A stretch of DNA of 50,679 nucleotides. Source: Patescibacteria group bacterium. Lineage in GTDB: Bacteria; Patescibacteriota; Minisyncoccia; UBA6257; MFKM01. Shown in pieces: positions 18,073 to 37,952 of the stretch; the stretch's first letter is position 1; every line of letters starts with the position of its first letter. The stretch spans positions 1-50,679 of the forward strand of contig JBBTRS010000004.1 in NCBI GenBank assembly GCA_038065115.1, written 5' to 3'. Under the pieces are notes generated by a model. It ran no database searches and had not been told where the DNA came from. It saw only the letters and a list, made by a program, of their open reading frames with translations. Position numbers and translations under genes: made by a program.

Positions 18073-18402
18073 ATGTTTTCCCTAAAAACAATAAAAAATA
18101 AACTGGAAAAAGAAAAAAAAGCGCTTGAGGTAGAAATCAATTCTTTAAACACGCCTCCGCAGTTCGGCGACGACATGGACGAAAGCGAAAAAACCGACGA
18201 AATTGAGGCTTTCGGCGCCAATCTGGGTCTTCAACAAGTTTTAAAAAACAGGCTGGAAAATATCAATTCGGCTTTGCGGAAAATGGAACAAGAAAAATAC
18301 GGTTTTTGCGAACAATGCGGAAAAAAAATGTCCCGAATTATTTTAAGAATCTTGCCTGATTCCCGACTTTGCCAAAAATGTAAAAAATTGTTAAAGAAAT
18401 GA
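18073..18402 (+). CDS. DksA/TraR-family C4 zinc-finger protein
   Basis: C-terminal CEQCGKKM...LCQKCKK, preceded by a coiled coil. Confidence 0.7.
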   Translation: MFSLKTIKNKLEKEKKALEVEINSLNTPPQFGDDMDESEKTDEIEAFGANLGLQQVLKNRLENINSALRKMEQEKYGFCEQCGKKMSRIILRILPDSRLCQKCKKLLKK

Positions 18403-19964: not shown

Positions 19965-21035
19965 TTAGAATTTAGCGAAAGGATTTTTGGCGCCGCGAAC
20001 TTCAAAATGTAAATGGCAACCGGTTGGGCCGTGAGTGTTGCCAGTATTGCCCATCAAGCCAATCTTAGCGCCTTGCGAAACATACTTGCCTTCATCCACC
20101 AAGATTTTGTTTAAATGAGCGTAAGCGGTATAAGTTTTATTGGGATGTTCTATTTTAATATAGCCTCCATAGCCATTATTCCAGCCAATATTGCCTGCTT
20201 CTATAACTAAACCTTCGGCCGCGGCGTAAACCGATGTCCCGCACTGATTAGCGACGTCAATAGCGTTATAATCGTGAAGCCGGCCCCAATTCCAACCGGT
20301 TGTGGGAATAGCAAAATAATTACCTAAGTCCAAGAAGTCGTCGGGCCAACGACTGACATAATTTGTTTTTCGCAAAGGTCGGCCGTGGGGGATAATCAGT
20401 CGATTGCCTTGATTCTGAAGAAGTTCTTGAAAACTGGTATTGAATTTTTTAATTTCCTCGGAACTGACTCCATATAAACCAGCAATAGAATCCAAGGTAT
20501 CGCCCTCTTTAATTTCATGCAACACCCCTTCAACCGGCAAAATAACTATTTCCTGGCCCGGTTTAATAAAAGACGATCGCAGGCCGGGATTTGTCCAGAA
20601 AATGGCATCGGTGGAAATATCAAATTTAACCGCAACTTTAGAAATGGTGTCTCCCGGTTGAATTTGGTAAATCATTAACCCCTCACGAGTCGGTAAAACA
20701 GTATTTAAAGGATTAGCCGGGTCAGAAATAACCGAACTGTCCAGTAAAACAAATCCGGCAAATCCGGCAAAAACAGAGTTGCTGTCGGTGGCTAAATTAT
20801 TAAAAGAACCGGCCAGGACAGATTCGGATTGACTTTCCGGACCGCCGATAATACCGCCGGAAATCAAAGCCGGTTTCTGATCGGCTTTTACCAAGCGAAT
20901 AGCAAAATTAACCGTTAAAATGCTCAAAAAAACCAAAAGAACCGACCAAGAGACGGTTTGCTTCAAAAATCTGCCCAAAGAGGTTAAAATCTTATGATGA
21001 GTAACGATAGAAAGTATTATAGCAAAGCCCGGCAA
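19965..21035 (-). CDS. LysM-domain M23 metallopeptidase (start uncertain)
   Basis: Two LysM repeats (YQIQPGDTISKVAVKF, HEIKEGDTLDSIAGLYG) and the M23 HxH motif (CHLHFEV). The track start is a TTG that overlaps murD. A later TTG (MKQTVSWSVLLVF, about 20966) gives a cleaner signal anchor. Confidence 0.8.
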   Translation of the reverse strand: MPGFAIILSIVTHHKILTSLGRFLKQTVSWSVLLVFLSILTVNFAIRLVKADQKPALISGGIIGGPESQSESVLAGSFNNLATDSNSVFAGFAGFVLLDSSVISDPANPLNTVLPTREGLMIYQIQPGDTISKVAVKFDISTDAIFWTNPGLRSSFIKPGQEIVILPVEGVLHEIKEGDTLDSIAGLYGVSSEEIKKFNTSFQELLQNQGNRLIIPHGRPLRKTNYVSRWPDDFLDLGNYFAIPTTGWNWGRLHDYNAIDVANQCGTSVYAAAEGLVIEAGNIGWNNGYGGYIKIEHPNKTYTAYAHLNKILVDEGKYVSQGAKIGLMGNTGNTHGPTGCHLHFEVRGAKNPFAKF

Positions 21036-23325: not shown

Positions 23326-24543
23326 TTATCTGCTTAGGGAAGATCCTATTCCTCGTATGAAGTCAATAATGCTATCAACACTGCCCTCGCTGGAGTTGGC
23401 GCAGTAATAGCCGGAAGTGTTTTGGCACTGAAAACTCATCATCGTATAGCCCCCAACAACATTCGGTCCGGCGTACCAGATATTGTAATTTGCGCGAAGG
23501 GTAGACATAAACGGCCTGTATGCTGTTTTTATTTCCTGACCGTTCCTTGAGAAATCTTTTATTTTTAATAAAATGCCAAAATTATAATAGCACGTACAGT
23601 AAGCAACGCTGTTGATGCTTCCGCCAAAATAGTCATGCATCCCGCCTGTTTGAGCTAAAACCTTGGAATAAAATAAACCCTTGATCATATTTTCAATCTT
23701 AATAAAAAAACTTGTAAGGCTTTTAATTTTATCTTCATTTCTGCTCGTAGGAACTGCGGACTCTTTTTGAAATCGGTTATTATCCGATTTATTTTGCTCT
23801 TTCATCGCTTTGAAAGCGTTTTTCACCTCATCTTTGCTATTATCATCAATCTTGTTTTCCGTCACCATAATAAACACGGGAGACCACCACCTTGTGTCTC
23901 CGTTTGCGTTCTGGATGTAAATAAGATGGATGCCCATATTTATACTATCCTTGCCCGGAACAGTCACTTTAAGCAATCCGTTATTCGCATATTCAACATT
24001 GCTGATTTTAAAGTCGTCTACATCGCTTATATAAACGCTGCTCCCCCGAGAAAGGCCAGATCCGTAAATCTCAAAAACCTGCCCGGGAATCACGTTATCC
24101 TCTGAAAGAGATTTTATTATTGGGGGTTCGGACGGCGGAATGACGGCGCTTTCCTTCTGTGGCTCAGGCAGTAAGAGTTGCTCCGGAATGGTCGTTTTGG
24201 CAACAACTTCGTTGAGTTTCTTTCTGGTCATCACCCCCACAAACCCTGTTCCGCTTTTTAAGCCGATCGGAATAAGCATCTCGGACTTATACTTGTCTTG
24301 AAATCGGATAACGGCATTTTTGGTAAGAGTTCCGAAAAATAGCGTCTCATTTCCCGGGGAGCCCGGTCCTTCGAGAGCAACTTGGGTTTCCGGGTCATAA
24401 TTTAACACTTGCTGCAAAGCTTTGACATCCGAAGAGAAGTCGCCTTTCTTGAGGTCGCGTATAAATTGAAAATCGGCAGAAACTGATTCGCTTATAAAAA
24501 AAATAACTGCGATGCTGGTTAATACTTTTAAGTATTTATGCAT
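23326..24543 (-). CDS. Secreted protein with an N-terminal peptidoglycan-binding (PG_binding_1-like) domain
   Basis: Signal peptide, then GDFSSDVKALQQVL...GTLTKNAVIRFQDKY. IPT-like middle region. Cys-containing C-terminal domain of unknown function. Confidence 0.6.
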   Translation of the reverse strand: MHKYLKVLTSIAVIFFISESVSADFQFIRDLKKGDFSSDVKALQQVLNYDPETQVALEGPGSPGNETLFFGTLTKNAVIRFQDKYKSEMLIPIGLKSGTGFVGVMTRKKLNEVVAKTTIPEQLLLPEPQKESAVIPPSEPPIIKSLSEDNVIPGQVFEIYGSGLSRGSSVYISDVDDFKISNVEYANNGLLKVTVPGKDSINMGIHLIYIQNANGDTRWWSPVFIMVTENKIDDNSKDEVKNAFKAMKEQNKSDNNRFQKESAVPTSRNEDKIKSLTSFFIKIENMIKGLFYSKVLAQTGGMHDYFGGSINSVAYCTCYYNFGILLKIKDFSRNGQEIKTAYRPFMSTLRANYNIWYAGPNVVGGYTMMSFQCQNTSGYYCANSSEGSVDSIIDFIRGIGSSLSR

Positions 24544-24657: not shown

Positions 24658-25419
24658 ATGAAATCCCTAAAATCAGGGCTTATAGTTTTGGCGGTGATTT
24701 TGTTTTTAGTCGGCGCTTATTTTGTTAACAAACCGCGGGAGCGGTCTCTTGTTTCCGAAAAAAATCCATCAAACATCAAATTATCTTCTTTGGTTCCGGA
24801 AACTAATAATTCTTATAATTTTGACGTCAAAAATAATCTCACAAAAACTCTCGGCCAAAATCTTTTTGAAGAGATTCGAGCCAACAACCTCGCAAATAAA
24901 GAAAAAGATGATTTGCCGGCTGACATAAATTCAATATCCGAGAAATTAGCGAATAGCGTTATTAACGAAAGCTTGGCGGATTTTAAATTGATATCCACTA
25001 TTTACGATTCTGATATAAAAATTTCCCCGGATATTACCAAAGAAACCAAAACCCGATATCTTGAAACCATTGCGGAAATTAACCAAAAAAACTTCGGAAG
25101 TTTTAACAAAAACCATCTTCAAGTAATAGTTGATGTTTATCAAAAAATAGATCCTTCTTCCGCCAGCCGCTTGGCGAATATTTACAAAAACTTAGCCGCT
25201 GATTTCCTAAAAGTTGCCGCGCCTGCCGATTGGGTTGGTATTCACAAGGCGCTGATTATTCATGCCAAAAACGCGGAAATTATTTACAAGGCAATGGCTA
25301 ATTATCCAGTTGACCCGATTAAGGGATATTTGGCCCTGGAAACGATTGACGCCCTGATTGATGATATCGGGAAGATTAAAAATACGTTAACGGAGAAATT
25401 AAAAGAAATCAGCTCCTAA
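24658..25419 (+). CDS. Hypothetical membrane-anchored protein (first gene of the T4SS-like operon)
   Basis: N-terminal TM helix. Stop is adjacent to the next start (TAA ATG). Confidence 0.6.
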   Translation: MKSLKSGLIVLAVILFLVGAYFVNKPRERSLVSEKNPSNIKLSSLVPETNNSYNFDVKNNLTKTLGQNLFEEIRANNLANKEKDDLPADINSISEKLANSVINESLADFKLISTIYDSDIKISPDITKETKTRYLETIAEINQKNFGSFNKNHLQVIVDVYQKIDPSSASRLANIYKNLAADFLKVAAPADWVGIHKALIIHAKNAEIIYKAMANYPVDPIKGYLALETIDALIDDIGKIKNTLTEKLKEISS

Positions 25420-27030
25420 ATGAAATCTTTACTTTTAAAAAAAACAATTCTGGTTGCAATCATCGCTTCGCTTGTTTTGAGCGGTTTGGGTAATGTTTTC
25501 ACGCCGAAAGCGGCGGCGCAAGCAGGACCGAGCACGCCAGGAGAAGCCGCCGGACAGGCCTTGGCCAAAGGGGCTGCTTGTCTTTTACAAGCAAAACTGC
25601 AAATGAAAGCTGAAGGCTTGTTAACGACTCTGACTAGTTGGCTTGGGATTCAAACAGGTGATGTGGGAAAATTAATTGGAATGGATAAAGCCGCGGGCAA
25701 CGAAGTTCCTGTTAGAGCCAAGGGCGTAGAACAAGCCGTTCAAAGCGCCAACACAAAAGAAACTGACAATCAACAAAGCGTAGAGGCCGTAAGTCTTTCC
25801 AAGAAATGCATTCGGGATGCCGTGCTGAAAACAATCATGGATTGGATTGTTGATGAAACCATCACCTGGGTTCAAAACGGCGGCCAGCCAAGATACATTA
25901 CCAATTGGGACACCTTCTTAAGCGATGCTTTTAATGTGGGTGTAGGCGAAATTGTCAACGAAATCGGCTTGGGCGAACTCTGTCAGCCTTTCAGCTTTCA
26001 GCTTAGATTATCTCTTCTGCCGGTTCCCAGTTTCAAAAACAGAATCGCCTGTACGCTTGATGACATCGTCGCCAATATCAATGATTTTTACGACGATTTT
26101 AGAAACGGCAGCTGGATAGCCTACGAAGCCAGCTGGCGGCCGGAAAATAATTACTACGGAGCTCTTTATATGACAATGAACGAAGCAATGACCAAGGGAG
26201 CTCAACGGAAAGAAGCCGCTGAAAAAGAAGCGATGTCGGGTCAGGGATATTTGCCGGTTAAAGAATGCGTGAGAACCGGCCGAACCGACCCAAACGACCC
26301 GAAAACCGAAAAGTGTCTTGAATATAAAATTATCACCCCGGCTCCGGTGGTCGGCCACCTCACCAACAGAGCCGCGGCCGCGGATATTGATTGGGCGATG
26401 AGCGTTCAGTCATGGACAGCGGCTTTGACCAACGCCGTCGTCAACCGCGTTATCAAAGAAGGCGTGGGGTTAATGAAAAAAAGCACGGCGCCTAAATCGG
26501 CGGGCTACGGCGATTACGACCCTTACGGGGGTTATGACCCGGCTCTTTCGCTTAAAAGACAAGAACGAGACTTTATAAAAAATGATTATCAAACATGGAT
26601 TGCTTATTTCAATGCAATTTTGGCTAATAAACAATCGAGTTTGTCTTCATCGCAACAAATATTAACGGCTTTAAACGAACTCAAAACTCGTAGTTGCCAA
26701 CCGTTGGTTTCTGACAGCGATATTGCCAATGCCCAAAACGAGGTTACCCGCTTAACCGACGAAGTTGCCAATTACCAAGCCATTGTCAACGAAACCCAGG
26801 CCGGCATCACCGAAGCTGTTAATATTTCCGCTGATTTCCGAGACCGGGAAATGGCTCTCTTAACTCAAAATCACGACGCTTTTATAATCAAAAATCAGTC
26901 GTTGATTGCGGAAATTTCCGATTCGGAAACGACTAAGAATACTTCTCAAGAAGAATCCCGAACTAAACAAAGCGAGCTGTCGTTAACCCAGTCCCGTTTG
27001 ACGCTCTGTCTCGCCACCCAAACACCCTAA
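25420..27030 (+). CDS. Hypothetical secreted protein with a C-terminal coiled coil
   Basis: Sec-type signal peptide (…FTPKAAAQA). Tight coupling to both flanking ORFs. Confidence 0.6.
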   Translation: MKSLLLKKTILVAIIASLVLSGLGNVFTPKAAAQAGPSTPGEAAGQALAKGAACLLQAKLQMKAEGLLTTLTSWLGIQTGDVGKLIGMDKAAGNEVPVRAKGVEQAVQSANTKETDNQQSVEAVSLSKKCIRDAVLKTIMDWIVDETITWVQNGGQPRYITNWDTFLSDAFNVGVGEIVNEIGLGELCQPFSFQLRLSLLPVPSFKNRIACTLDDIVANINDFYDDFRNGSWIAYEASWRPENNYYGALYMTMNEAMTKGAQRKEAAEKEAMSGQGYLPVKECVRTGRTDPNDPKTEKCLEYKIITPAPVVGHLTNRAAAADIDWAMSVQSWTAALTNAVVNRVIKEGVGLMKKSTAPKSAGYGDYDPYGGYDPALSLKRQERDFIKNDYQTWIAYFNAILANKQSSLSSSQQILTALNELKTRSCQPLVSDSDIANAQNEVTRLTDEVANYQAIVNETQAGITEAVNISADFRDREMALLTQNHDAFIIKNQSLIAEISDSETTKNTSQEESRTKQSELSLTQSRLTLCLATQTP

Positions 27031-29064
27031 ATGAACAAAAAACAAAAATTATTGGCGATTCTTGGTTTAATTATCGTTTCGGTTTCGATTTTACTTATAA
27101 GTAGTAAATCTTTAGCACAAGAGACAGGCACAACTACCCAGCCCAATATTGATTCTCCTGGTACGCGAATTAACGGAATCGGCGATAGCGCCCTTAGTAT
27201 GATTTTTGGATTCATTAACCAAGTTTTTGGTTCTATAGGCAGTACCCTTTATACCATAGCCGGCGGACTGGCTAATTTCAGTATATTGCTTAATTTTGAC
27301 ATCCTGAATAATCCGATGATCAATACCGGCTGGCAAATAACTAGAGACTTGGCTAATCTCGGTTTTGTTTTATTCATTATTATCATCGCCATTGCCACTA
27401 TTCTCCGAATGCAACAATACGGAGCCAAAAGCGCCCTAGGAAAATTAATCGCCGTAGCTCTTTTGGTAAATTTCAGTCTCGTTTTTGCCGGTATTTTTAT
27501 TGATTTTTCCAATATGCTGACGAATTTCTTCATTAAAAATATTACGAGTGGCGATCCAGGAGGGCTAGCCACCGCTCTATCGGAATCTTTCAAGATTCAA
27601 AATCTCCTTCAGGTAAAAGAAGGAGGAGAAATAAATCTTTTCCAAGCAGGAGGGTCGATATTCACAGGAATCGCCAGCAATATCTTTGTTATCGCTTTTA
27701 CACTTATCGGCGCTTTTTCTTTATTCGCTCTAGCGGCGATGTTTTTGGTCAGGGTCATCGCATTGGGTATTCTTCTGGTATTAATACCCCTAGCTTGTCT
27801 TTCTACTATTTTGCCGGCAACAAAAAAACTTTGGAGTCAATGGGTCAGTAATTTTACTGAATGGGCATTTTTTGGACCGATAGCTTCTTTTTTTCTTTAT
27901 CTTGCGGTTTCTATGGCAACTAATTACGGCGAAACAATAGAGCAACTAACAACCGTTGCCAAAGGAATTGGTACCAGGAACGAAATGACGTTCGCAAATC
28001 TAATGATAGCCCAACCTTTAATTCAAATAGGAAGAATGTTTCTAGTGATCGGCTTCTTGCTTGGTGGGTTGGCAGCAGCGAATTCAATGAAAACTATGGG
28101 GGCAAGCGCTGTTGTAAATGGAGTTAATGCGTTTGGCAAATGGGCGAGAGGGGCGATGGGAAGAGGAGCCGCGGGAGCGGCGAGTTTGCCGCTTAGAACC
28201 GCCAGAGGGCAAAAACTCGTTGAAGGAATGCAAAAAACGCCCGGCTTTAGACGATTGGGTACTATGCTTAGCAATGTAGGCGTAGAGCAGGGCACGAGAA
28301 TGACCAAGCAAGCCGAGGAACGAATAAATAAACGCTTCGCCTCCGACAGAAGCGCGGCCTTGGCCATTTCCACCCTAAACTGGGAAGAACGAGTGGCGGT
28401 TGTTAAGAGATTAATGAAAAATAAAACAATGGGCTTGATGGAAGAAAAAGACCTCAACAACCTTATAGGGAACAAAGCAACTGAAGCTAATTTCGCGAGA
28501 TTAGGCGCCAAAAATGTTTACGATGATTTTGAAAAATCAGCTGGTCGAAACAGAGCAATGGTTGAAGCGAAAACTCCGGAAGCAAAAGAAAGAGAAGCAA
28601 AAGAATTCTTTGGGAAAAAATATTCTCTCAAGGATTTTGAAAACCTTAGAAAATCTGCGCTTCTTAAAGACGAGGATGGTGTTTACAGAATGGCCGCTAT
28701 CATAAAAACCAACCCCGGCGCTCTTTCTAAATTGATACCTAAATTTGCCGGCGAAGATTTTGATAAATTCGAAAAGCAACTAAGAAGCACGCTCCCTCGG
28801 GAAATCGAAATTGAAGTTTCTCCGGCAGAACCGGAAGAAAAAGACAAAGAAGGCGGGATAATAAAACCGGCCAAGCCAGCTAAATTTGAAACCATAAAAA
28901 TAATAGAAAAAGATCCGAAAACTGGCGATTATAAAATATCATTGGATGACGTTGCCGAAAAATATCTTAAACGCGAAAATCCGAAGCTCTATAAAGCCCT
29001 TTCCAAAACATTAACAAATCGAGCAATTGGCATAGGCGAATTTGAACCGCCCGCCGCAACATAA
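27031..29064 (+). CDS. Polytopic membrane protein, VirB6/TrbL-like
   Basis: Signal peptide plus at least 6 TM helices with a TrbL-like pattern (GWQITRDLANLGFVLFIIIIAIATIL...). Charged cytoplasmic C-terminal ~250 aa. Confidence 0.55.
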   Translation: MNKKQKLLAILGLIIVSVSILLISSKSLAQETGTTTQPNIDSPGTRINGIGDSALSMIFGFINQVFGSIGSTLYTIAGGLANFSILLNFDILNNPMINTGWQITRDLANLGFVLFIIIIAIATILRMQQYGAKSALGKLIAVALLVNFSLVFAGIFIDFSNMLTNFFIKNITSGDPGGLATALSESFKIQNLLQVKEGGEINLFQAGGSIFTGIASNIFVIAFTLIGAFSLFALAAMFLVRVIALGILLVLIPLACLSTILPATKKLWSQWVSNFTEWAFFGPIASFFLYLAVSMATNYGETIEQLTTVAKGIGTRNEMTFANLMIAQPLIQIGRMFLVIGFLLGGLAAANSMKTMGASAVVNGVNAFGKWARGAMGRGAAGAASLPLRTARGQKLVEGMQKTPGFRRLGTMLSNVGVEQGTRMTKQAEERINKRFASDRSAALAISTLNWEERVAVVKRLMKNKTMGLMEEKDLNNLIGNKATEANFARLGAKNVYDDFEKSAGRNRAMVEAKTPEAKEREAKEFFGKKYSLKDFENLRKSALLKDEDGVYRMAAIIKTNPGALSKLIPKFAGEDFDKFEKQLRSTLPREIEIEVSPAEPEEKDKEGGIIKPAKPAKFETIKIIEKDPKTGDYKISLDDVAEKYLKRENPKLYKALSKTLTNRAIGIGEFEPPAAT

Positions 29065-29067
29065 AAT

Positions 29068-30225
29068 ATGCTTAAAATTCCAAGACAACAAGTTTTAGAC
29101 AGATGGGATACCCTGCCGGATAATCTCAAAGAAGCCTTATCTTCCGAATCTAATAGCGATATTGTTTGGCAGATTGGCGCTCTTAATCATTTGACTGAGG
29201 AAAAAATTTCTATGATGGCGACGATAGTCGGCGACGTCATTTTTGGTTTTCTTCATTCTGAAGATTTAGCTCGGGAAATTCAGGAATCCCTTAATTTAAA
29301 TTCTCAAATCGCCAATTCCATCAGCCATGAAATCAACCGTAAAATTTTCGCGCCGATTAGAACAGATTTGGAAAAAATTTATAGTCCAGCCAGCGAGAGG
29401 CCGGAAATAAAATCGCCGACCGAACCGGAAATAAAACTTGAAATAAAAGCAGAAGAAATTAAAAAAGCCGAAACGCCGGCGACAAAACCAACACCCGCGG
29501 AAATCAAGAAGGTGATTGAATTAAAACCGGCTCCATTCCCAACCGCGCCGACAATTCCAGCCATTCCAACCGTCCCAGCCGCTCCGGCTATTCCAGTCGC
29601 TCCGGAGCCGCCTATTCCAACCGTTCCTATTTCCAACGAAAAACCGTTTGTTCTTCACCAAGAAACCGAACCTAGGCCCGTCGGGGAAAAATCGCGAATT
29701 TCATCGTCTCCGGCTTCCGGTTGGTTCAAAAAAGCCATACCTGCCAATCCGCTTTACCGAAACTTCGGCGAAATGGGCAGGCCAGAAAAATCAAAAATGC
29801 CGGAATCGCCAATCAAAATCAAACTAGAGACATTCGGTCAAAAACCAGAAGAGAAAAAAGAACCGATTATCGCCAGAACTGAAATCCCCAAACAGAGGAT
29901 AGTCCATTATCGGGAAGCGGAGGCGTCTTCTCCTTTCGGCAAAATTCAAAGTGAGCCTTCAAGCTCGCTTTCCAGCGCGACGCCAAGCAAGCCGGAAATA
30001 AAATTGCCAAGAGAAATTACGGCGTTAAAACCAGAAACGCCGGCGCCAATAATAAAACCGCCGGAATTGAAACCGCTAAAAATTGAAGAGATGATCAAAC
30101 CAAAGCCAACTAAACCCGAGGAACCAGGTATCGCTAACCCCAGCCCTTCCAAGATAACAAAAGAAAATGAAGTGAAGTTGGAAGGGAATGTTATCAATTT
30201 AAAGAACAGCAAGCCCAATTCATAA
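29068..30225 (+). CDS. Pro/Lys/Glu-rich low-complexity protein
   Basis: Structured N-terminal ~110 aa, then PxP and EIK repeats (PAIPTVPAAPAIPVAPEPPIPTVP). Confidence 0.55.
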   Translation: MLKIPRQQVLDRWDTLPDNLKEALSSESNSDIVWQIGALNHLTEEKISMMATIVGDVIFGFLHSEDLAREIQESLNLNSQIANSISHEINRKIFAPIRTDLEKIYSPASERPEIKSPTEPEIKLEIKAEEIKKAETPATKPTPAEIKKVIELKPAPFPTAPTIPAIPTVPAAPAIPVAPEPPIPTVPISNEKPFVLHQETEPRPVGEKSRISSSPASGWFKKAIPANPLYRNFGEMGRPEKSKMPESPIKIKLETFGQKPEEKKEPIIARTEIPKQRIVHYREAEASSPFGKIQSEPSSSLSSATPSKPEIKLPREITALKPETPAPIIKPPELKPLKIEEMIKPKPTKPEEPGIANPSPSKITKENEVKLEGNVINLKNSKPNS

Positions 30226-30728
30226 TGCAATTCCAAGTACCTCAATATTACGAAGTCAAAGAAAAAATTGTCGGCTCCCTGACTCTCCAGCAATTCTTTT
30301 ATATCGCCGCGGCTTGCGGCTTAAGCTTTTTTCTTTTTTTCATTTTTGAATTATGGCTTTGGTTCGTTGCCAGTGTTTTCCTGATTGGCTTCGCGGCCGC
30401 TTTGGCTCTGGTGGAGATAAACGGCCAATCTTTAACCAAAATTCTTTTTTCCGCCTTTTTTTATTACTGGCGACCGCGAATTTTTCTCTGGCGAAGAGAA
30501 GCCGAAAAAATGGAAATAATTTTACCGGAGGAAGAAAAACAAATTGAAGAAATCAAGAAAGAATTAAGTTTTCAGCAAAAAATAAAATCCCTGGGGCAAA
30601 AAATCACAACCAGCCGTTTGCCTTTGCCCGGCGAAAAACCGACCAATCGGAGTATCCAAGAACACTATCAAATTTTCCGAAAACCCACCGGCGAAAGGCA
30701 AATGGCGAGAAGAGTGGACTATAGATAA
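30225..30728 (+). CDS. PrgI-family (VirB3-like) membrane protein
   Basis: N-terminus VPQYYEVKEKIVGSLTLQQFFYIAAA followed by two TM helices, which is the PrgI-family signature. Confidence 0.7.
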   Translation: MQFQVPQYYEVKEKIVGSLTLQQFFYIAAACGLSFFLFFIFELWLWFVASVFLIGFAAALALVEINGQSLTKILFSAFFYYWRPRIFLWRREAEKMEIILPEEEKQIEEIKKELSFQQKIKSLGQKITTSRLPLPGEKPTNRSIQEHYQIFRKPTGERQMARRVDYR

Positions 30729-30741
30729 CGAATTCTCGCTA

Positions 30742-31095
30742 ATGCATAAAGAATTAACACGAATCACGAATTATCAGAAAGCATTAGCTGAAGAATTTAT
30801 TAAACGGAACCTGAATTTTGAACAACAAAAACGTATTACAATTTATTCTCTGGATAGCGGCAAACCTTTAGGTGTTTATGTGCCCGATTTTGTAATAGCA
30901 AATAAAATAATTTTAGAGATTAAAGCAAGTAATATTACTATCCGTCAAGACATCAACCAACAACGCGCTTATCTAGGAGTGAGTATTTATGAAATTGGAT
31001 ATTTGGTAAACTTCGGAACCCCCGAATTAGATATTAAACGTTCTATCTATACAAACGACCGGAAACCTTTTATTATTAAAATAATTAGTGATTAG
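30742..31095 (+). CDS. GxxExxY-family PD-(D/E)XK nuclease-like protein, N-terminally shortened
   Basis: VPDFVIANKIILEIKAS (D...ExK) and YEIGYLVNFG motifs. Lacks about 25 aa of the usual N-terminal helix. Confidence 0.65.
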   Translation: MHKELTRITNYQKALAEEFIKRNLNFEQQKRITIYSLDSGKPLGVYVPDFVIANKIILEIKASNITIRQDINQQRAYLGVSIYEIGYLVNFGTPELDIKRSIYTNDRKPFIIKIISD

Positions 31096-31130
31096 TGGTT
31101 ATTCGTTTTTAATTATTGGTAATTAGTTTT

Positions 31131-31784
31131 ATGAAATCCCAATCAACTCAACAATTCGTTGAAATCCAAGAAGTCCGAGAAGGAGTGATTTTTCTAAAAA
31201 ACGGCTCCTTGCGCCAATTATTGATGGTCAACGGAGTTAATTTTGATTTAAAATCGGAAACCGAGCAGGATTTAATGACTTACGCTTATCAAAACCTTTT
31301 AAACTCTTTGAATTTTTCAATCCAAATTTTCATTCATTCCCGCCGGTTAAATATTGAAACTTATCTCCAAAAAATCCAAGAACGCCACGGCCAGGAAACC
31401 AATGAACTTCTGAAAACCCAAATTGCCGAGTATCTGGAATTCATAAAGTCTTTCGTGGCCAACAACGCCATAATGGATAAAACTTTTTTCGTCATCGTGC
31501 CTTACGATCCGGTTTACTTGCCAAAAACCGCGAAAGGAATATTGGGCTTTATTAAAAAAGGGGAGGTGGCGGCTTCCAAAGATCAGCCTTCTCAATCAGA
31601 GAATATTCAACAAAATCTCCAGCAACTTAGTCAAAGAGTAGACCAGACAATTACGGGTCTTCAGCAAATCGGCCTCCGAGCGGTTCCGCTTAATACCGAG
31701 GAATCTATTGAACTTATCTACAACCTTTACAATCCCCAACTGACAGAAAAACAAAACCTGGCCATTGCTGAAGAAAATTTATAA
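31131..31784 (+). CDS. Hypothetical protein associated with VirB4 (resembles N-terminal regions of Gram-positive-type VirB4/TcpF-like proteins)
   Basis: FVEIQEVREGVIFLKNGSLRQLLMVNGVNFDLKSETEQD pattern. Start moved to an ATG; the track start is TTG. Confidence 0.5.
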   Translation: MKSQSTQQFVEIQEVREGVIFLKNGSLRQLLMVNGVNFDLKSETEQDLMTYAYQNLLNSLNFSIQIFIHSRRLNIETYLQKIQERHGQETNELLKTQIAEYLEFIKSFVANNAIMDKTFFVIVPYDPVYLPKTAKGILGFIKKGEVAASKDQPSQSENIQQNLQQLSQRVDQTITGLQQIGLRAVPLNTEESIELIYNLYNPQLTEKQNLAIAEENL

Positions 31785-31788
31785 AATT

Positions 31789-33534
31789 ATGAAAAAAATT
31801 GAAATCACCAAAGGGTATGCCGCTTCCGGCCGAGACATTCAAGATGTCATCGCGCCGGCCGGATTGGAAGTTAATGCCGGTTATCTCAAATTCGGCGAAA
31901 AATACATTAAAACGTTCTTTCTGTTTACCTATCCTCGTTATGTTTCCAGCGGCTGGTTTTCGCCAATTATCAATCTAGCGGAAATTATTGATATCGCTGT
32001 TCATATTCACCCCATTGACACGGCTTTGGCTTTGCGAAATCTCCGAAGAAAAACAGCTCAAGTCCAAGCTCAAATAATGGAGCGCGAAGAAAAAGGATTG
32101 GTCCGCGATCCGATGCTGGAAACAGCCTATCAGGATGTGGAAAATCTTCGGGACTCTCTCCAACAAGCCCAAGAAAAGCTTTTTGAGGTCGGAATCTACA
32201 TTACCATTTACGGAAACGACCTTAAAGACTTAGCCCGTCTGGAAAATTTAATCGTCTCCCTCATGGAAAGCAAATTGGTTTATGTCAAACCGGCTCTTTT
32301 TCAGCAACTTGAAGCCTTTTCTTCGGTCTTGCCTTTGGTAACGGATAAATTGGCCATTCGCACTCCGCTGAATTCCGGACCGGCTTCTTCAATATTTCCA
32401 TTTATTTCAGCCGACCTGACTTCAGACGAGGGCATTCTTTACGGCGTTAATCTTAGCAATAACAGCTTAGTGATCTTTGACCGATTCTCGCTGGAAAACG
32501 CCAATTTCTGCGTTTTCGCGAAAGCGGGCAGCGGAAAATCATTTTTCGCGAAGCTGGAAATTCTCCGATCAATAATGATGGGAACGGATATTGTCGTTAT
32601 TGACCCGGAAAACGAATATCAAAATTTATGCGAAACCATCGGCGGCAGTTATTTTAAAATCTCGTTAACTTCAACAAGCCATATCAATCCTTTTGATATA
32701 CCCATTATTCCTCCCGATGAAGAACCGGCCGAAGTTTTTAAATCACACATTCTTAACGTAGTTGGTTTAATCAAGTTAATGCTCGGCGAAATAACTCCCG
32801 CGGAAGACGCTATCTTGGACAAGACCGTTTTGGAAACTTACGCTTCACGAGACATCGTTCCGGAAAAAGATTTTTCCCAAGCCCAGCCGCCTTTACTGGA
32901 AGACTACCAAACTATTCTTGAAAACACCGAGGGAGGAGCCGACCTGGCAAAACGTTTGGAAAAATTCACCCGCGGTTCTTACGCCGGTTTTACCAACCAA
33001 CCAACCAATGTCAACATCAAAAATCGTTTGGTGGTTTTTTCCATCCGCGACTTGGAAGACGAACTGCGGCCCATCGCGATGTATATTATTCTTAATTTCA
33101 TCTGGAATCTTATCAGGGCCGAACTTAAAAAAAGAATCGTGGTTATTGACGAGGCTTGGTTAATGATGAAATACCCGGACAGCGCTTCTTTTCTTTTCGG
33201 CTTGGCCAAACGAGCGAGAAAATATTATTTGGGAGTAACAACAATCACTCAAGATGTTGAAGACTTTTTAAGTTCTCCTTACGGCCGACCGATTATCAAC
33301 AACTCCTCGCTCCAATTTCTTTTAAAACAAGCGCCGGCCACCATTGATTTAGTCGCTAAAACTTTTAGCTTAACCGATGTGGAAAAAACCTTTCTCTTGG
33401 AAGCGGCGGTGGGAGAGGGGCTATTTTTCGCGGGATTAAAACACGCTGCTCTTAAAGTGGTTGCTTCTTACGCCGAAGACCAAATGATTACCACCAACCC
33501 GGAGCAACTCCTGGAGAGGAGAAAGGAAGCTTGA
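31789..33534 (+). CDS. virB4: VirB4-family type IV secretion ATPase
   Basis: Walker A AKAGSGKS, Walker B IVVIDEAW, N-terminal YPRYVSSGWFSPI pattern. Start moved to an ATG (MKKIEIT). Confidence 0.85.
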   Translation: MKKIEITKGYAASGRDIQDVIAPAGLEVNAGYLKFGEKYIKTFFLFTYPRYVSSGWFSPIINLAEIIDIAVHIHPIDTALALRNLRRKTAQVQAQIMEREEKGLVRDPMLETAYQDVENLRDSLQQAQEKLFEVGIYITIYGNDLKDLARLENLIVSLMESKLVYVKPALFQQLEAFSSVLPLVTDKLAIRTPLNSGPASSIFPFISADLTSDEGILYGVNLSNNSLVIFDRFSLENANFCVFAKAGSGKSFFAKLEILRSIMMGTDIVVIDPENEYQNLCETIGGSYFKISLTSTSHINPFDIPIIPPDEEPAEVFKSHILNVVGLIKLMLGEITPAEDAILDKTVLETYASRDIVPEKDFSQAQPPLLEDYQTILENTEGGADLAKRLEKFTRGSYAGFTNQPTNVNIKNRLVVFSIRDLEDELRPIAMYIILNFIWNLIRAELKKRIVVIDEAWLMMKYPDSASFLFGLAKRARKYYLGVTTITQDVEDFLSSPYGRPIINNSSLQFLLKQAPATIDLVAKTFSLTDVEKTFLLEAAVGEGLFFAGLKHAALKVVASYAEDQMITTNPEQLLERRKEA

Positions 33535-33566
33535 TAGCAACCAAGCAATTGAGTATTAAATAAATT

Positions 33567-33950
33567 ATGGGAGAACAGGGGCCAAGAATTTCTTTAGTGG
33601 AGACAATCCTGATGACGATGATTACCGGCAGCGCCGATATTTTTGAATTAATCGCTACTTTATTAATCGCAGTGCCGGTAATCGGACAAATTCTTTTAGT
33701 CATAAAATGGTTTGTGGCTTTCTCTGTTTGGTTAATCATTCAATTTTGGCTTATAATGAAAGGGTTGAGGGGATTGTGGTTTTTAAGCGGCAGCGCTTTA
33801 GATACGGTGGCAAATTTTGTCGGACTTGACATTCCTTTTGGCAAAACGGCTTCGCTGATGGCTACTATTTATCTAGCCAATCACCCCAAAATAACTCAAA
33901 TAGCGGCAGTTGTTGGCGGTAAAACAGAAACCGCTACGGGGAAAAATTAA
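33567..33950 (+). CDS. Small polytopic membrane protein
   Basis: 127 aa with 3-4 hydrophobic helices. Confidence 0.5.
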   Translation: MGEQGPRISLVETILMTMITGSADIFELIATLLIAVPVIGQILLVIKWFVAFSVWLIIQFWLIMKGLRGLWFLSGSALDTVANFVGLDIPFGKTASLMATIYLANHPKITQIAAVVGGKTETATGKN

Positions 33951-33976
33951 GTAAATTTAAAGTTCAAAAAAACGGG

Positions 33977-34654
33977 ATGGAAAAAGACAATTTAAAATTT
34001 AAAAAGAAGTTTTTTATTGCTTTTGCTTTCTACCTCTTATTTTCTGCTTCTTCGTCGGCCGCCGCTCAATCGCAAGCTTTAATTACTTGGCAGGCTCAAA
34101 GTTTCGCGCCGGCTGAATACACAGGGAAAAGACTGCCTTCGCCGGGGACAAATATTAACCTGGGCTTGGAAGTGATAAGAGAAAAGAAGCTTCGAGATTT
34201 ATCAAAAATCAATATCCGCTGGTATCTTGACGGGAAATTGTTGACTCAGGGCATTGGACTAAAAGAAACGAGTTTTCTTGCGAACAAGGGAGCCACTCAT
34301 TCTCATTTTGTCCGGGCAGTTATTATGGCCGAACCAGAAATTAGCGGCAATATCGATATCCCTATTGTTAATCCCAAAATTATTATCAAAACTCCTTCGC
34401 CAGCCGATACTTTTATCGCCTTGGGCAAGACATTGCTTCAGGCCGTTCCTTATTTTTTCAACATAGCAAATCCGGAAGAGTTAATTTTTAAATGGTCGGT
34501 CAACAACCAAGCCCTTGAAGGGACTAATCTTTTGGAGCTGGAAATCGCTCCGCCGATTCCCTTAAACCAAAATCTTAATGTTAAAGTGATGGCTCAAAAT
34601 CTAAAAAACGATTTGGAGTTCGGCTCTAAAGAGATTAATTTAAATGTTCAATAA
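33977..34654 (+). CDS. Hypothetical secreted protein
   Basis: Signal peptide (…FSASSSAAAQS). Beta-rich sequence. Confidence 0.55.
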   Translation: MEKDNLKFKKKFFIAFAFYLLFSASSSAAAQSQALITWQAQSFAPAEYTGKRLPSPGTNINLGLEVIREKKLRDLSKINIRWYLDGKLLTQGIGLKETSFLANKGATHSHFVRAVIMAEPEISGNIDIPIVNPKIIIKTPSPADTFIALGKTLLQAVPYFFNIANPEELIFKWSVNNQALEGTNLLELEIAPPIPLNQNLNVKVMAQNLKNDLEFGSKEINLNVQ

Positions 34655-35372
34655 TAAAAATAAATTAATAATTATTTTTGCGTCTTTGGTTCTATTTTCT
34701 ATTTTTCCGCCTTCGGCGGACCAGCCACGGGCTGGCTATTTTTCCGCCTTCGGCGGACCAGCCACGGGCTGGCTATTTTCTATTCCAGCGGAAGCCGCTA
34801 GCCCGTTAAAATTACAAATACAGTTCCCTTGCCCCGATTTTCCCGGAGCGAACTGCCCGGCCTCTCCGGAAAAAGCCGCTCAAAGCCCGGCCGCTTATAT
34901 CGCCCGACTTTATCAATTCGCTTTAATGCTGGCCGGAATGCTGGCGTTTGGGATGATTATCTATGGGGCGATTCAATATACGGTTTCCGCCGGCAACACG
35001 ACCCAGCAAAGCGATGCCCGCGACCGCATCACTCAAGCCCTTTGGGGCGTGGCTTTACTTCTAGGCGCTTATTTGATTCTTCGCACTATTGACCCGAAAT
35101 TGGTGAACCTGAAAGATCCGGATATTAAATTAATAGAAATAAACAGCACCAGCACTCTTGGTGCCGCCGATACCGTCATTTCTCCAGCAACACCACCGTC
35201 ACCGCTAACGCCACCGCCGCCAACTCCGTCATCAATAGCGCCCTCGTTACCGCAGCGACTACCAGAACGATTGCCGCCAGACATAGAAGGCATAGAACGA
35301 ATACGATTAGAACCATTGCCGCTGCAAAATAATCAAATGCGGGCTTTGCCCCAGTTTCAGCCTGCGCTCTAA
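34644..35372 (+). CDS. VirB2/TrbC-type T4SS pilin-like protein with a Pro-rich C-terminal tail
   Basis: Signal peptide, then two TM helices flanking a polar loop (LAFGMIIYGAIQYTVSAGNTTQQSDARDRITQALWGVALLLGAYLIL), which is the typical T4SS pilin layout. Confidence 0.65.
   Translation: MFNNKNKLIIIFASLVLFSIFPPSADQPRAGYFSAFGGPATGWLFSIPAEAASPLKLQIQFPCPDFPGANCPASPEKAAQSPAAYIARLYQFALMLAGMLAFGMIIYGAIQYTVSAGNTTQQSDARDRITQALWGVALLLGAYLILRTIDPKLVNLKDPDIKLIEINSTSTLGAADTVISPATPPSPLTPPPPTPSSIAPSLPQRLPERLPPDIEGIERIRLEPLPLQNNQMRALPQFQPAL
34701..34774. repeat. Tandem 2 x 37-bp repeat (atttttccgccttcggcggaccagccacgggctggct) inside the pilin signal-peptide coding region
   Basis: Two exact copies. Each unit contains two GC-rich hairpins (CCGCC-TTC-GGCGG; CCAGCC-ACG-GGCTGG). 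Flanked by the 12-bp direct repeat ctattttctatt (34692..34703 and 34773..34784). Confidence 0.9.
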
Positions 35373-35380
35373 ATAAAGAG

Positions 35381-36541
35381 ATGATCAAATTAACCAACTT
35401 TATGCGTAAAATCTTAATTTTTATTATCGGGATTGTTGGAATTTTGGCATTGGCCTGGCTAATTTATTACATTGTCGGCCGAGCAACCGCCCCGAAAACT
35501 GCCAGCCCAGAAACAAAATCACCGGAGCAAGCAGTTGAAGAAATAAACGGGGAGCCGGTCGCGACTACAACCGGCCAATTAAAAATTATTTCCAAGGAAT
35601 CAGTTTTTGATTACTGGATTGCTTCCAGTACTCAAGAAATTTTTTATGTCACCGAAGCTGGAAAAATCGCCGAAATTAATCCCGACGGCCAAGACACCCT
35701 CCTATCGGAACAGCAAATCGGAGACCTTAATTTTATTCTGTCTTCGCCCGACAGCCGAAAAATAATCGTCGCATTCGGCAATCAAGCCCAACCGCAATTC
35801 AGTATTTTTGATTTAACCAACAACTCGTGGACCCCGTTGCCTTTAGAAATTAAATCAGCGGCGTGGTCGCCGGAAGGGAAGAGGATAGCCGTTATAACCA
35901 GCCAAAACAATCAAACCAATTTGACGATTATTGACGTTGCCAAATACTTTTCCACCGACGCGAAGCAAAAAGAAAAAGCCTCTAAAATAATTATTAAAAA
36001 TTTTGCCTTGAAAGATTTAAAAATAGACTGGCTGATGCCCGATGAATTGGTTTTCACCGACAAGCCCTCCTCTTTAGCAATGGGCTCGGCTTGGCGGTTT
36101 AATCTTTCCAAGCTTAATTTTGACGAAATCGTTCCCCCGGGAAACGGATTGATGATTAAATGGCTAAAAGATGATTTGGGACTGAAATTCCAAAACCAAA
36201 AAAGCAGTTTGATTAATTGGGCCGGGCAAGCCATCAACGACTTTCCGTTTATGGCTTTACCGGACAAATGTGTTTTAAAAATAGATTCTCTTTACTGCTT
36301 CCTCTTTACACCGGCCAGCCCAAAAACAAAATGGCCTGACGATTATCTCCAAAAATCAACCTTTACCAACGATAGTCTTTATAAATTCAATCTGGGCAAT
36401 TTAACCGCGCCGGAGTTGGTTTTTGAAAACACCATAGAAGGAAAAATCATTGACGCCTCAAACTTAAAACTCCTCGGCAATCAAATTCTTTTTACCAATC
36501 GCTACGACAGCCTGCTTTACGGTTTAGAAATTAGTAATTAA
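35381..36541 (+). CDS. Membrane-anchored protein with a beta-propeller-like (TolB-like) region
   Basis: N-terminal TM helix. Contains AAWSPEGKRIAV-type repeats. Confidence 0.55.
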   Translation: MIKLTNFMRKILIFIIGIVGILALAWLIYYIVGRATAPKTASPETKSPEQAVEEINGEPVATTTGQLKIISKESVFDYWIASSTQEIFYVTEAGKIAEINPDGQDTLLSEQQIGDLNFILSSPDSRKIIVAFGNQAQPQFSIFDLTNNSWTPLPLEIKSAAWSPEGKRIAVITSQNNQTNLTIIDVAKYFSTDAKQKEKASKIIIKNFALKDLKIDWLMPDELVFTDKPSSLAMGSAWRFNLSKLNFDEIVPPGNGLMIKWLKDDLGLKFQNQKSSLINWAGQAINDFPFMALPDKCVLKIDSLYCFLFTPASPKTKWPDDYLQKSTFTNDSLYKFNLGNLTAPELVFENTIEGKIIDASNLKLLGNQILFTNRYDSLLYGLEISN

Positions 36542-36566: not shown

Positions 36567-36709
36567 GCAAACCAAGCTTGTCTTCGAAAACCAGAATATT
36601 CCGACTCCAGCGGTCGGAATTTCTTTTCCCTCGGCGCTGAAATCCCGACTTCGTCGGGAACCAATCTTTCAGCGCCTGCGGGATATTTTCTCAGACAAGC
36701 TTGGTTTAC
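36567..36709. other. Nested-hairpin element of about 143 nt, closed by a 15-bp perfect stem (ncRNA, MITE-like element or complex terminator)
   Basis: AAACCAAGCTTGTCT (36569..36583) pairs with AGACAAGCTTGGTTT (36693..36707). Inner helices are CCGAC/GTCGG, GGCGCTGAAA/TTTCAGCGCC and the UUCG hairpin CCCGAC-TTCG-GTCGGG. Confidence 0.5.
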
Positions 36710-37147: not shown

Positions 37148-37811
37148 GTTGTTTTTGTTTTTCCAATGCTTTGTTGATAAAAATTTGCTGGCCTAAAGAA
37201 AAAAGCGACGAAACTAGCCAGTAAAGACCGAGAGCGGAGGGGAGACTGCTTAAGAATAAAAAAGTTATAGCCGGTCCTATGTATAACATCGCCTGGCTGG
37301 CGCGATCGGCGGCGGCCTGACCAGTTCCTGTTTTCGGCATCATTAGTCGTCCCTGGAAATATTGAGCCAGAACCGCCAAGATCGTAATCAGCGCATTTTT
37401 CTGGTTTAAGTTAATTAAACTCAAAAATTTGTAATTGTCAAAAACAGCGCTGGAAAGGCCATTCAGGAAAACCTGATAAAGAGCAATCAGCACCGGCAAT
37501 TGAATAATTAAAAGCAGGATGCCGGAAAAAGGATTAATACGGTGTTCTTTGTAAAGGTCCAGCAATACCCTTGTTTGTTTTTCTCTGTCGTCTTTGTGGT
37601 CTTGTTGAATCTTTTTGACCAAGGGCTGAAGTCTTTGGATTTTAGTTTGGTCTTTGGTCCCATGATAAAAAAACGGCAAAAGCAAAAACCTGACAAAAAT
37701 AGTCAGTAAGATAATAGCGATGCCTAAGTCATGGAAAGAGACGTTTTTATAGATAAATATTAAAACTTCAAGAATCGGCTGGTAAAGCAGATCGTGGAAT
37801 AGGTTTTTCAT
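37110..37811 (-). CDS. yidC: Membrane protein insertase YidC (short form)
   Basis: 233 aa with YidC/Oxa1 core helices (ILLTIFVRFLLLPF..., PFSGILLLIIQLPVLIALY). Confidence 0.85.
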   Translation of the reverse strand: MKNLFHDLLYQPILEVLIFIYKNVSFHDLGIAIILLTIFVRFLLLPFFYHGTKDQTKIQRLQPLVKKIQQDHKDDREKQTRVLLDLYKEHRINPFSGILLLIIQLPVLIALYQVFLNGLSSAVFDNYKFLSLINLNQKNALITILAVLAQYFQGRLMMPKTGTGQAAADRASQAMLYIGPAITFLFLSSLPSALGLYWLVSSLFSLGQQIFINKALEKQKQHGTIIGENKKTA

Positions 37812-37817
37812 AAGAAA

Positions 37818-37952
37818 TTAAACCGTTAATTTTTTCCGGCCTTTCTTGCGACGCCTCTCAATCGTTCGCCTTCCTCCAAACGACCTTCCTCTTTTCAGGA
37901 ATCCGTGGGTTCTCTTTCTTTTTTTCTTTTTTGGTTGATAAGTAATCGACAT
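37818..37952 (-). CDS. rpmH: 50S ribosomal protein L34
   Basis: Hand-translated: [44 protein letters not shown]. Below the ORF-track cutoff. Confidence 0.9.

Follow-up and report, generated by a model that had tools for sequence, protein, structure and literature searches.

An origin-proximal type IV secretion system-like operon in a Paceibacteria genome, probably a vertically inherited apparatus for host contact

What is a set of conjugation-type genes doing beside dnaA in the chromosome of a Patescibacteria cell: does it belong to a mobile element, is it the relic of one, or does it encode a resident machine? This question is raised by positions 24658-36541 of contig JBBTRS010000004.1 (assembly GCA_038065115.1) from a Patescibacteria group bacterium (Paceibacteria, candidate phyla radiation (CPR)). 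The window analysed here is the whole stretch of 50,679 nt. We estimate at roughly 80% the probability that the locus is a vertically inherited type IV secretion system (T4SS) of the Patescibacteria clade, fixed by the origin, in which VirB4 most likely drives a pilus or conduit for host contact. Few machines have been shown to be indispensable to the epibiotic life of these ultra-small bacteria, and the Patescibacteria T4SS is one of them. As a Paceibacteria example, the window is clean and complete and defines a core of 11 genes; it does not reveal a new principle.

The locus contains twelve tightly packed open reading frames (ORFs; O1 to O12), all on the + strand. Two junctions have a spacing of 0 nt, two are overlaps of 1 and 11 nt, and the others are gaps of 3-32 nt, in agreement with the abutting starts and stops described in an earlier interpretation made from the letters alone (hereafter the sequence-only reading). 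Eleven ORFs form a T4SS-like operon, and the twelfth (O6, 30742-31095) is a passenger gene. Window ORFs of at least 100 aa were scanned against Pfam or NCBIfam, except for two such ORFs near 45.2-45.8 kb. In the operon these libraries recognise five ORFs, encoding PrgI/VirB3, a GxxExxY protein, a TrsD-like protein, VirB4, and a pilin-domain protein. For comparison, every window protein was searched by tblastn against 80 Paceibacteria loci (one genome per species), and about 10 kb around virB4 was inspected in six close relatives with 88-95% identical VirB4. The four T4SS components named by the sequence-only reading (VirB6/TrbL-like, PrgI/VirB3, VirB4, and a VirB2-type pilin) are supported, VirB6 through its orthologues only and the pilin with a score below the cut-off of its family. 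The number of unrecognisable proteins, given there as about seven, is reduced to six, as 30742-31095 encodes the GxxExxY passenger and 31116-31784 TrsD, the detached N-terminal module of VirB4.

The VirB4 ATPase (O8, 31789..33534, 581 aa; the ORF also opens upstream at a TTG, 31765) matches NF045971, the CD1110-family VirB4 profile, with 374 bits (cut-off 325) over positions 180-728 of 752. It also matches P-loop_TraG (2e-30) and the C-terminal domain of Thermoanaerobacter VirB4 (PDB 4ag5, 3e-46). Across 29 aligned homologues, the residues of Walker A (G247, G249, K250, S251) and of Walker B (D454, E455) do not vary; the motifs are thus intact, as previously noted, and the possibility raised at the same time that the ATPase is degenerate finds no support. 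VirB4 has thousands of homologues. Among the best 120, the length is about 580 aa and the identity 69-95%; most carry no source name, those named come from Jorgensen-, Wolfe-, and Brennerbacteria (Paceibacteria), across which the identity is near 70%, and no given name among these 120 lies outside Patescibacteria, which serves as a proxy for clade membership in place of a tree. Across the 80 loci the median identity of VirB4 is 69%, the highest in the operon.

Immediately upstream of VirB4 lies the TrsD-like ORF O7 (31116..31784, 222 aa), the real start of which is probably the ATG at 31131. It matches NF041427 TrsD (2e-6), TIGR00929 VirB4_CagE (positions 8-178, 5e-8), and NF045971 (positions 2-115, 1.5e-5). 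TrsD is found in 75 of the 80 loci, adjacent to virB4, with a median identity of 52%. In three loci TrsD and VirB4 constitute one in-frame ORF of 774-797 aa (L062:9404-11740, L072:9317-11710, and L080:9380-11704), and everywhere else they are separate genes. Since the two proteins match successive stretches of one profile and occur as a fusion in three genomes, sequence comparison identifies them as a CD1110-family VirB4 that is split into two genes, the split being the conserved state. The uniform length of about 580 aa among the VirB4 homologues further indicates that the 581-aa protein is full length for the clade and that the 222-aa ORF is a separate gene. TrsD as a frameshifted VirB4 fragment was ruled out, as near and distant VirB4 homologues alike have about 580 aa and the two-gene state is the norm. 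An hhalign comparison of the TrsD profile with the VirB4 alignment was uninformative because this alignment held the three fused proteins. Two of the three fusion genomes carry the label Colwellbacteria, and their operons are shorter as well.

Two membrane proteins correspond to the platform of known T4SSs. PrgI/VirB3 (O5, 30225..30728, 167 aa) matches PF12666 PrgI at 3e-7 (31.3 bits, cut-off 27) and is present in 73 of the 80 loci. The VirB6/TrbL-like protein (O3, 27031..29064, 677 aa) has about 5-6 transmembrane (TM) segments within residues 100-350, followed by a hydrophilic tail of about 325 aa, the layout of an "extended VirB6". The window copy by itself has no Pfam or NCBIfam match. Among 55 syntenic orthologues, nine match PF04610 TrbL/VirB6 (best 1.1e-6), and the orthologue in L087 has a faint TrbL_3 match. 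O3 may accordingly be called VirB6-like by transitive homology only, an assignment with which its polytopic topology is consistent; tblastn finds it in 63 of the 80 loci. Between the window and L081, O3 is only 47% identical to its counterpart (L081:4585-6582) and the pilin 51%, compared with 94% for VirB4 and 96% for DnaA. The VirB6-like protein and the pilin are by far the fastest-diverging parts in this comparison.

In the VirB2-type pilin-domain protein (O11, 34644..35372, 242 aa), the pilin core spans residues 83-147, and an 89-aa tail without Cys and with 21% Pro comes after it. Its match to PF18895 (E 5e-5, 23.8 bits) is under the cut-off of 26.6, and 48 of 50 orthologues match the same family (best 6e-11). 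In nearly all relatives the pilin bears a variable Cys-rich C-terminal tail of up to about 450 aa, and the whole protein reaches about 560 aa, compared with 242 aa in the window. The orthologues used for this comparison include L010:5324-5707, L039:8304-8702, and L080:11701-12555. In 18 of the 50 orthologues, counted with a strict motif filter, this tail ends in a domain resembling the Hedgehog/DD-peptidase (LAS) zinc hydrolases, with the signature SxHxxGxAxD...HxH and a PDB match to Shh-N at 5e-8. One further relative carries an M23 peptidase as pilin tail. In the relatives, the pilin may in this way be joined to a VirB1-type function that cuts the cell wall. The window pilin contains no peptidase domain and ends in its short Pro-rich tail. 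The divergent gene at 23326-24543 was considered as the carrier of the absent LAS domain and was ruled out, with an hhalign probability of 0.6%. The 5' part of the pilin gene contains the 15-nt self-complementary segment CCAGCCACGGGCTGG, followed by CTATTTT, at 34721-34735 and again at 34758-34772, 37 nt apart; the repeated segment encodes the peptides PRAGYF and PATGWLF.

The other six proteins are lineage-specific and are co-conserved with the T4SS core. O1, O2, O10, and O12 carry a signal or anchor segment, O9 is a small membrane protein, and O4 is disordered and has no TM segment. O1 (24658..25419), a bitopic protein of 253 aa, has one TM-like segment (residues 6-24) and an extracellular domain that appears helix-rich by eye. 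It has no Pfam or NCBIfam match, and its orthologue profile has no PDB sequence match. O1 is found in 19 of the 80 loci with about 25% identity, every time in the first position. O2 (25420..27030, 536 aa) is secreted: a signal peptide is followed by an N-terminal domain that contains Cys, and the C-terminal part is a helical bundle. Its 64 homologues are all annotated as hypothetical and have no Pfam domain, and in 55 of the 80 loci it lies immediately upstream of VirB6. The AlphaFold2 (AF2) model of O2, built from a 49-sequence alignment, has a mean predicted local distance difference test score (pLDDT) of 64 and is confident only at residues ~370-536. A Foldseek search with this model gave nothing in the PDB at E<=1e-3, the best matches (E 0.018) being generic designed or BAR-like helical bundles. 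O2 was considered as a VirB5-, VirB1-, or VirB8-like protein, and these generic matches of the model support no such assignment.

O4 (29068..30225, 385 aa) is rich in Pro (14%), Lys (11%), and Glu (12%) and largely of low complexity. In the alignment, about 100 aa at the N-terminus form a conserved domain, and short motifs, VHY among them, are conserved as well. It has no match in Pfam, NCBIfam, or the PDB profile search, occurs in 43 of the 80 loci, and is possibly a cytoplasmic adaptor or scaffold. O9 (33567..33950, 127 aa) has 2-3 TM segments and bears an "NHP" motif. In 48 loci the place between VirB4 and O10 is taken by a positional orthologue with the same motif, 105-190 aa in length and too divergent for tblastn. 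No Pfam match was found across 49 O9 orthologues, and no PDB match. O9 as a second VirB2-type pilin was rejected on this ground and on an hhalign probability of 0.2% against the pilin profile. O10 (33977..34654, 225 aa), secreted or anchored, is predicted to contain two tandem Ig/FN3-like beta-sandwich domains. Its AF2 model has a pLDDT of 76, and Foldseek returned generic FN3/Ig tandem matches only (1e-7). O10 has no Pfam match and no PDB sequence match, and is present in 69 of the 80 loci. O12 (35381..36541, 386 aa), found in 55 of the 80 loci, is bitopic; its TM segment is N-terminal, and its ectodomain is beta-rich and contains conserved Cys. The ectodomain is possibly propeller-like; the beta-propeller/TolB-like matches are weak (E 0.005-0.7). 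Median identities across the 80 loci are 25-34% for O1, O2, O4, O12, and VirB6.

The sequence-only reading had proposed to search the unassigned ORFs against the VirB7-10, PrgL, TcpC, and CagX families. No match was obtained by hidden Markov model (HMM) or profile searches, and structure searches, carried out for O2 and O10, revealed no T4SS part. Orthologue profiles of O1, O2, O3, O4, O9, O10, O12, and TrsD, compared with PDB sequences, gave coiled-coil noise, insignificant TolB matches, or nothing. No VirB5-, VirB7-, VirB8-, VirB9-, or VirB10-like protein was detected, with O1, O4, O9, and O12 covered by sequence comparison only. For the NTF2-fold VirB8-like proteins (PrgL, TraM, TcpC), no ORF has a sequence-level match; the predicted fold of O10 is Ig/FN3, and the model of O2 is mostly of low confidence. 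O2 and O10, at least, do not appear to be disguised VirB5, VirB7, VirB8, VirB9, or VirB10 proteins.

The surroundings of the operon are those of a chromosomal origin. Its 3' end is 1.3 kb from rpmH (37818-37952, - strand, identified by its L34 sequence) and, as stated earlier, 1.5 kb from dnaA (38049-39446, + strand, with DnaA domains), and the cumulative GC-skew minimum falls at about 37-38 kb. Downstream of the operon follow jag and yidC, then rpmH, dnaA, and dnaN. Essentially every locus with enough flank, from about 50 species-level Paceibacteria genomes, keeps the order ComM, M23/LysM(-), KsgA, (O1), O2, VirB6, O4, PrgI, TrsD, VirB4, (O9), O10, pilin, O12, Jag(-), YidC(-), (rpmH), DnaA, DnaN, PBP(-). 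The orientation of the operon relative to dnaA is kept as well, and the six close relatives have the same operon and the same flanks. The survey of conservation and synteny suggested by the sequence-only reading thus agrees with its view of a core chromosomal apparatus. The scanned window ORFs with a length of at least 100 aa encode no integrase, relaxase, type IV coupling protein (T4CP), or VirB11, and no T4CP, relaxase, or integrase domain was found within about 10 kb of virB4 in the six relatives. The absence of VirD4, relaxase, VirB11, and integrase reported earlier therefore holds among the scanned window ORFs. For the coupling protein it applies to the window and not to the whole genome, as VirD4-like genes lie far from virB4 in most Patescibacteria genomes according to a recent survey (PMC12102498). 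The operon does not differ in GC content from its flanks, the only tRNA of the window (2096-2168) is 22 kb away, and the window contains no signature of an integrative and conjugative element (ICE), namely flanking tRNA or att sites, Rfam families, or a compositional break.

All operon genes are under purifying selection, with dN/dS ratios of 0.04-0.58 against two close relatives, the ratios being approximate because dS is near 1. VirB4 (0.04) is close to DnaA (0.05) and is followed by TrsD (0.07) and PrgI (0.08). Intermediate ratios were obtained for O10 (0.11-0.13), O2 (~0.15), O12 (0.15-0.17), and O1 (0.17-0.19), and higher ones for O4 (0.19-0.35), O9 (0.2-0.3), and VirB6 (0.26-0.28), with the pilin (0.40-0.58) as the operon maximum. 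A rise from cytoplasmic to surface-exposed parts is the expectation for a host-contact organelle, and it separates conserved VirB4, TrsD, and PrgI from the fast-evolving pilin, VirB6, O1, O4, and O9. Together, conserved synteny and purifying selection argue for a vertically inherited core apparatus that is neither an ICE nor a relic.

These features agree with published descriptions. A study of about 2,400 genomes reported that the Patescibacteria T4SS is chromosomal, derived from monoderm conjugation machinery, and missing the relaxase (PMC12102498, Quiñonero-Coronel 2025, Microb Genom). That study places TrsD, PrgI, VirB6, and VirB2-like pilins near virB4, locates the Paceibacteria systems near dnaA, dnaN, rpmH, and ksgA, and lists VirB1-like matches with M23 and LysM domains. 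The window locus shows all testable defining features of the Paceibacteria type described there, and nothing essential differs: TrsD is immediately upstream of VirB4, PrgI, the VirB6-like protein, and the VirB2-like pilin are near, neither relaxase nor T4CP is nearby, and many neighbouring genes belong to no known family. The earlier remark that similar loci occur in CPR genomes matches this description. Compared with the type as given there, the window lineage has a GxxExxY passenger in the operon and a single-copy pilin with a short Pro-rich tail. The accessory genes O1, O2, O4, O9, O10, and O12 are not characterised in the portion of that study on which we draw. The system has also been taken up in a 2025 review of T4SS nomenclature (PMC12857230). 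The window locus is a further example and not a discovery, because relaxase-less, origin-proximal T4SS loci were described in 2023-2025. The minor details added here are the passenger genes in varied slots, the three TrsD-VirB4 fusions, and the Hedgehog/DD-peptidase pilin tails of relatives.

The closest system with functional data is that of Ca. Southlakia epibionticum ML1 (SEML1_0006-0019; Wang 2023, Cell, PMC10633639), which is likewise chromosomal, has a Gram-positive-like subunit set and VirB2-like pilins, and contains no recognisable relaxase or coupling protein. Its low locus-tag numbers suggest a position near the chromosome start. The Southlakia cluster differs in belonging to the class Saccharimonadia, in its array of six divergent pilins, and in the peptidase and lysozyme genes downstream of virB4. 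Its T4SS and pilins are essential for epibiotic growth (PMC10633639; PMC12857230), as determined by transposon sequencing, whereas the Paceibacteria version is known here from its genes. Saccharibacteria cannot do without the T4SS but can dispense with comEC (PMC12857230), which indicates that classical ComEC-dependent competence is not why the system is needed there.

More distant systems share parts of this inventory. With the MPF-FATA monoderm systems (C. difficile CTn with CD1110-family VirB4; pGO1 TrsC/TrsD/TrsE; pCF10 PrgH/I/J), the window locus has the VirB4, TrsD, and PrgI families in common. Unlike them, it has no T4CP, relaxase, or origin-of-transfer (oriT) context, and no VirB8-like (PrgL/TraM) or dedicated VirB1-like (PrgK/TrsG) protein was detected in it; it has a VirB2-type pilin and resides as a fixed part of the core chromosome rather than on a mobile element. 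We know of no VirB2-type pilin in Gram-positive T4SSs. The H. pylori ComB system, to which the sequence-only reading compared the locus, is also a chromosomal T4SS subset without VirD4, VirB11, or relaxase and has VirB2/3/4/6-like parts. ComB differs in that it needs the outer-membrane core ComB7-10 (VirB7-10) and hands DNA to ComEC, and no component of this core was found in the window by Pfam, NCBIfam, or PDB-sequence profile searches of the unassigned ORFs. Moreover, the organism that carries the window locus is a presumed monoderm, unlike H. pylori. The archaeal Ced/Ted systems share a VirB4-like ATPase, a VirB6-like protein, small VirB2-like proteins, chromosomal location, and absence of a relaxase, and they illustrate that conjugation machinery can operate in the direction of import. 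The likeness is compositional only, as O8 scores 48.8 bits against NF041017 CedB (cut-off 700). The ComB and Ced comparisons may thus serve as functional analogies and go no further.

VirB2, VirB3, VirB4, and VirB6 constitute the pilus-biogenesis core of canonical T4SSs (R388, Agrobacterium), where VirB4 pulls pilin out of the membrane and delivers it to the VirB6 platform. The presence of this core makes it most likely that the machine assembles a short pilus or an envelope-spanning conduit. TrsD and the 581-aa VirB4 core provide the motor, and PrgI/VirB3 together with the VirB6-like protein the membrane platform. The secreted and Ig-like proteins would carry the conduit through the wall and surface layers and contact the host cell. 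The apparatus would then serve contact-dependent exchange with the host rather than conjugation, and its fast-evolving surface parts could adapt to different hosts. Tubular structures, maybe T4SS pili, have been reported at a parasite-host interface (bioRxiv 10.64898/2026.06.21.733656). The gene list and the peptidase-like pilin fusion of relatives could guide structural work on such an assembly.

Several points weigh against this proposal. The pilin-domain protein is much larger than a classical VirB2, and instead of polymerising as a pilin it may anchor a surface domain in the membrane. Taken alone, the VirB6-like protein and the pilin of the window each remain under the curated family cut-offs. 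Neither a VirB8-like nor a VirB5-like protein was detected among the operon products, though canonical pilus assembly uses them, and six of the 11 subunits have no recognisable counterpart in known T4SSs. In addition, another part of the genome could encode a T4CP.

Two of the alternatives are mobility and decay. The VirB4, TrsD, and PrgI families are typical of Gram-positive conjugative elements and the window spans only 50.7 kb, so that an ICE or recent remnant might have its relaxase, T4CP, and integrase just outside. Such an element would hardly be expected at the same chromosomal position, with the same flanks, in about 50 species-level genomes and at this site in all loci with enough flank, between housekeeping genes, with no integrase, flanking tRNA, or att site in the window, with a GC content like its flanks, and with a VirB4 as constrained as DnaA. 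Relaxases, moreover, occur in only 103 of 3,035 genomes in the recent survey (PMC12102498), and we regard an ICE as very improbable. That the locus is a non-functional remainder of an ancient conjugation system, now in decay, is, if anything, still less credible. The passenger gene inside the operon, the split VirB4, and the loss from the window pilin of the C-terminal domain of relatives might be read as decay. However, the 11 genes are intact and constrained, the catalytic motifs are invariant, the TrsD/VirB4 split is a class-wide conserved state, the passengers disrupt no ORF, and the close relatives contain neither frameshifts nor stop codons nor any dN/dS near 1.

A resident T4SS for host contact could either export effectors or import host macromolecules. 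Reviews call the T4SS function completely unknown and raise both effector export and import of nutrients or nucleic acids (PMC11665869). One tentative possibility is nucleic-acid import resembling Ced/Ted or ComB, in which a VirB4-powered VirB2/VirB6 conduit would pull host DNA or RNA, independently of ComEC, into a cell unable to make nucleotides. The VirB2-, VirB6-, and VirB4-like parts without relaxase or T4CP have the outline of an import system, ComM, PNPase, and a NYN-domain RNase are encoded upstream (see below), and it has been speculated that the T4SS supplies nucleotides (PMC11665869). In line with this, the preprint on tubular structures links VirB4, T4SS-like pili, and PNPase to feeding on host RNA (bioRxiv 10.64898/2026.06.21.733656). 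Against it, the CedB model scores far below its cut-off while the conjugative CD1110 family passes, homologues of ComB7-10/VirB7-10 were not found, Pfam and NCBIfam give no DNA- or RNA-binding domain in any operon protein, and the ComM/PNPase linkage may just reflect a rigid origin-proximal gene order. A variant of the import device, in which conserved ComM and the window's PNPase and NYN RNase would process the incoming material and O1, O2, O4, O9, O10, and O12 would form a novel wall-spanning module, is equally speculative. Proteins might instead be injected or secreted into or onto the host bacterium, entering the machine by a Sec-dependent or T4CP-independent route as in Bordetella Ptl or Brucella VirB. 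Protein-secreting T4SSs without a T4CP exist (PMC12102498; PMC12857230), export was proposed by Wang et al. since coupling and relaxase proteins are missing (PMC10633639), and several products (O2, O10) have an N-terminal signal or anchor segment. Yet neither the operon nor its conserved flanks contain a candidate effector, toxin, or immunity gene, and the secreted proteins keep their positions as structural parts do and do not vary as cargo would, which leaves export as unlikely as import.

Near the operon, a LysM and M23 peptidase (19965..21035, - strand; Peptidase_M23 1.6e-27, LysM 1.2e-17) lies 3.6 kb upstream. It is found upstream of the operon in 34 of the 80 loci, nearly always on the opposite strand between ComM and KsgA. 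The operon itself contains no VirB1-like hydrolase, and the conserved linkage suggests that this peptidase could be a candidate wall hydrolase for the VirB1 role. ComM (18399-19961) is upstream of the operon in 31 of the 80 loci, and a PilB/GspE ATPase is encoded at 47691-49364. These neighbours had been named correctly in the sequence-only reading; the "PG-binding" protein listed with them corresponds to a weak match only (PG_binding_1, E 0.011; TIG, weaker still, E 0.06). It is the product of the divergent gene just upstream of the operon (23326-24543, - strand, 405 aa), which has a signal peptide and a Cys-containing C-terminal region and could be assigned to no family. The gene at this position encodes 408 aa in L081 and only 109-124 aa in L084-L087. 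PNPase (14912-16954) and the NYN-domain RNase (14384-14896) are located about 8-10 kb upstream of the operon. Other window genes are housekeeping genes and encode NusA, PNPase, ComM, a DksA-like protein, a MurD-like ligase, KsgA, a penicillin-binding protein (PBP), TyrRS, RuvC, RuvB, and PilB/GspE.

The GxxExxY / PD-(D/E)XK_3 protein O6 (30742..31095, + strand, 117 aa; PF13366 4e-18, TIGR04256 1e-18) has a single tblastn match among the 80 loci, in L060 and outside that operon. Sequence comparison identifies it as a passenger in the PrgI/TrsD slot, not a T4SS subunit. The same slot contains a four-helix-bundle gene (Avd-like, TIGR02436) in L001 (3049-3414) and L081 and a PDDEXK_3 gene in L085, and is empty in L084, L086, and L087. 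In L081 (6665-7192 and 8949-9314), a NYN gene at VirB6/O4 accompanies the four-helix-bundle gene; L084:8486-8713 is a GIY-YIG gene at O4/PrgI, and L085 has two PDDEXK_3 genes (8446-8844 and 9576-9971). The operons of L086 and L087 contain no passenger genes. The passengers occupy intergenic slots and leave every ORF undisrupted. Small selfish elements of nuclease type or intervening-sequence (IVS) type thus appear to have a hot spot in this operon. A literature search on GxxExxY or four-helix-bundle genes as mobile passengers gave nothing useful.

The convergent gap between O12 and jag contains a hairpin (36598..36620) that is terminator-like on both strands in a consensus scan. It probably marks the operon end, a call that rests on position because the scan as a whole (31 sites versus 19.5 ± 4.4 in shuffled sequence) shows modest enrichment only. 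Promoter-scan counts in the window were not clearly above those of shuffled sequence and were not used. The usual gene arrangement is rpmH-rnpA-yidC; here yidC directly follows rpmH (37811-37818), with no rnpA between them. Over about 22 kb to the left of the apparent origin (14384-36541), nearly all genes, including the T4SS operon, are on the + strand, so that their transcription appears to run head-on against the replication fork that moves leftward. Further away, at about 3000-13000, a block of low GC content (31-35% versus ~42% elsewhere) contains radical-SAM and SPASM genes, GNAT acetyltransferases, a prolyl oligopeptidase, and two APH-type kinases, and may be an acquired peptide-modification island.

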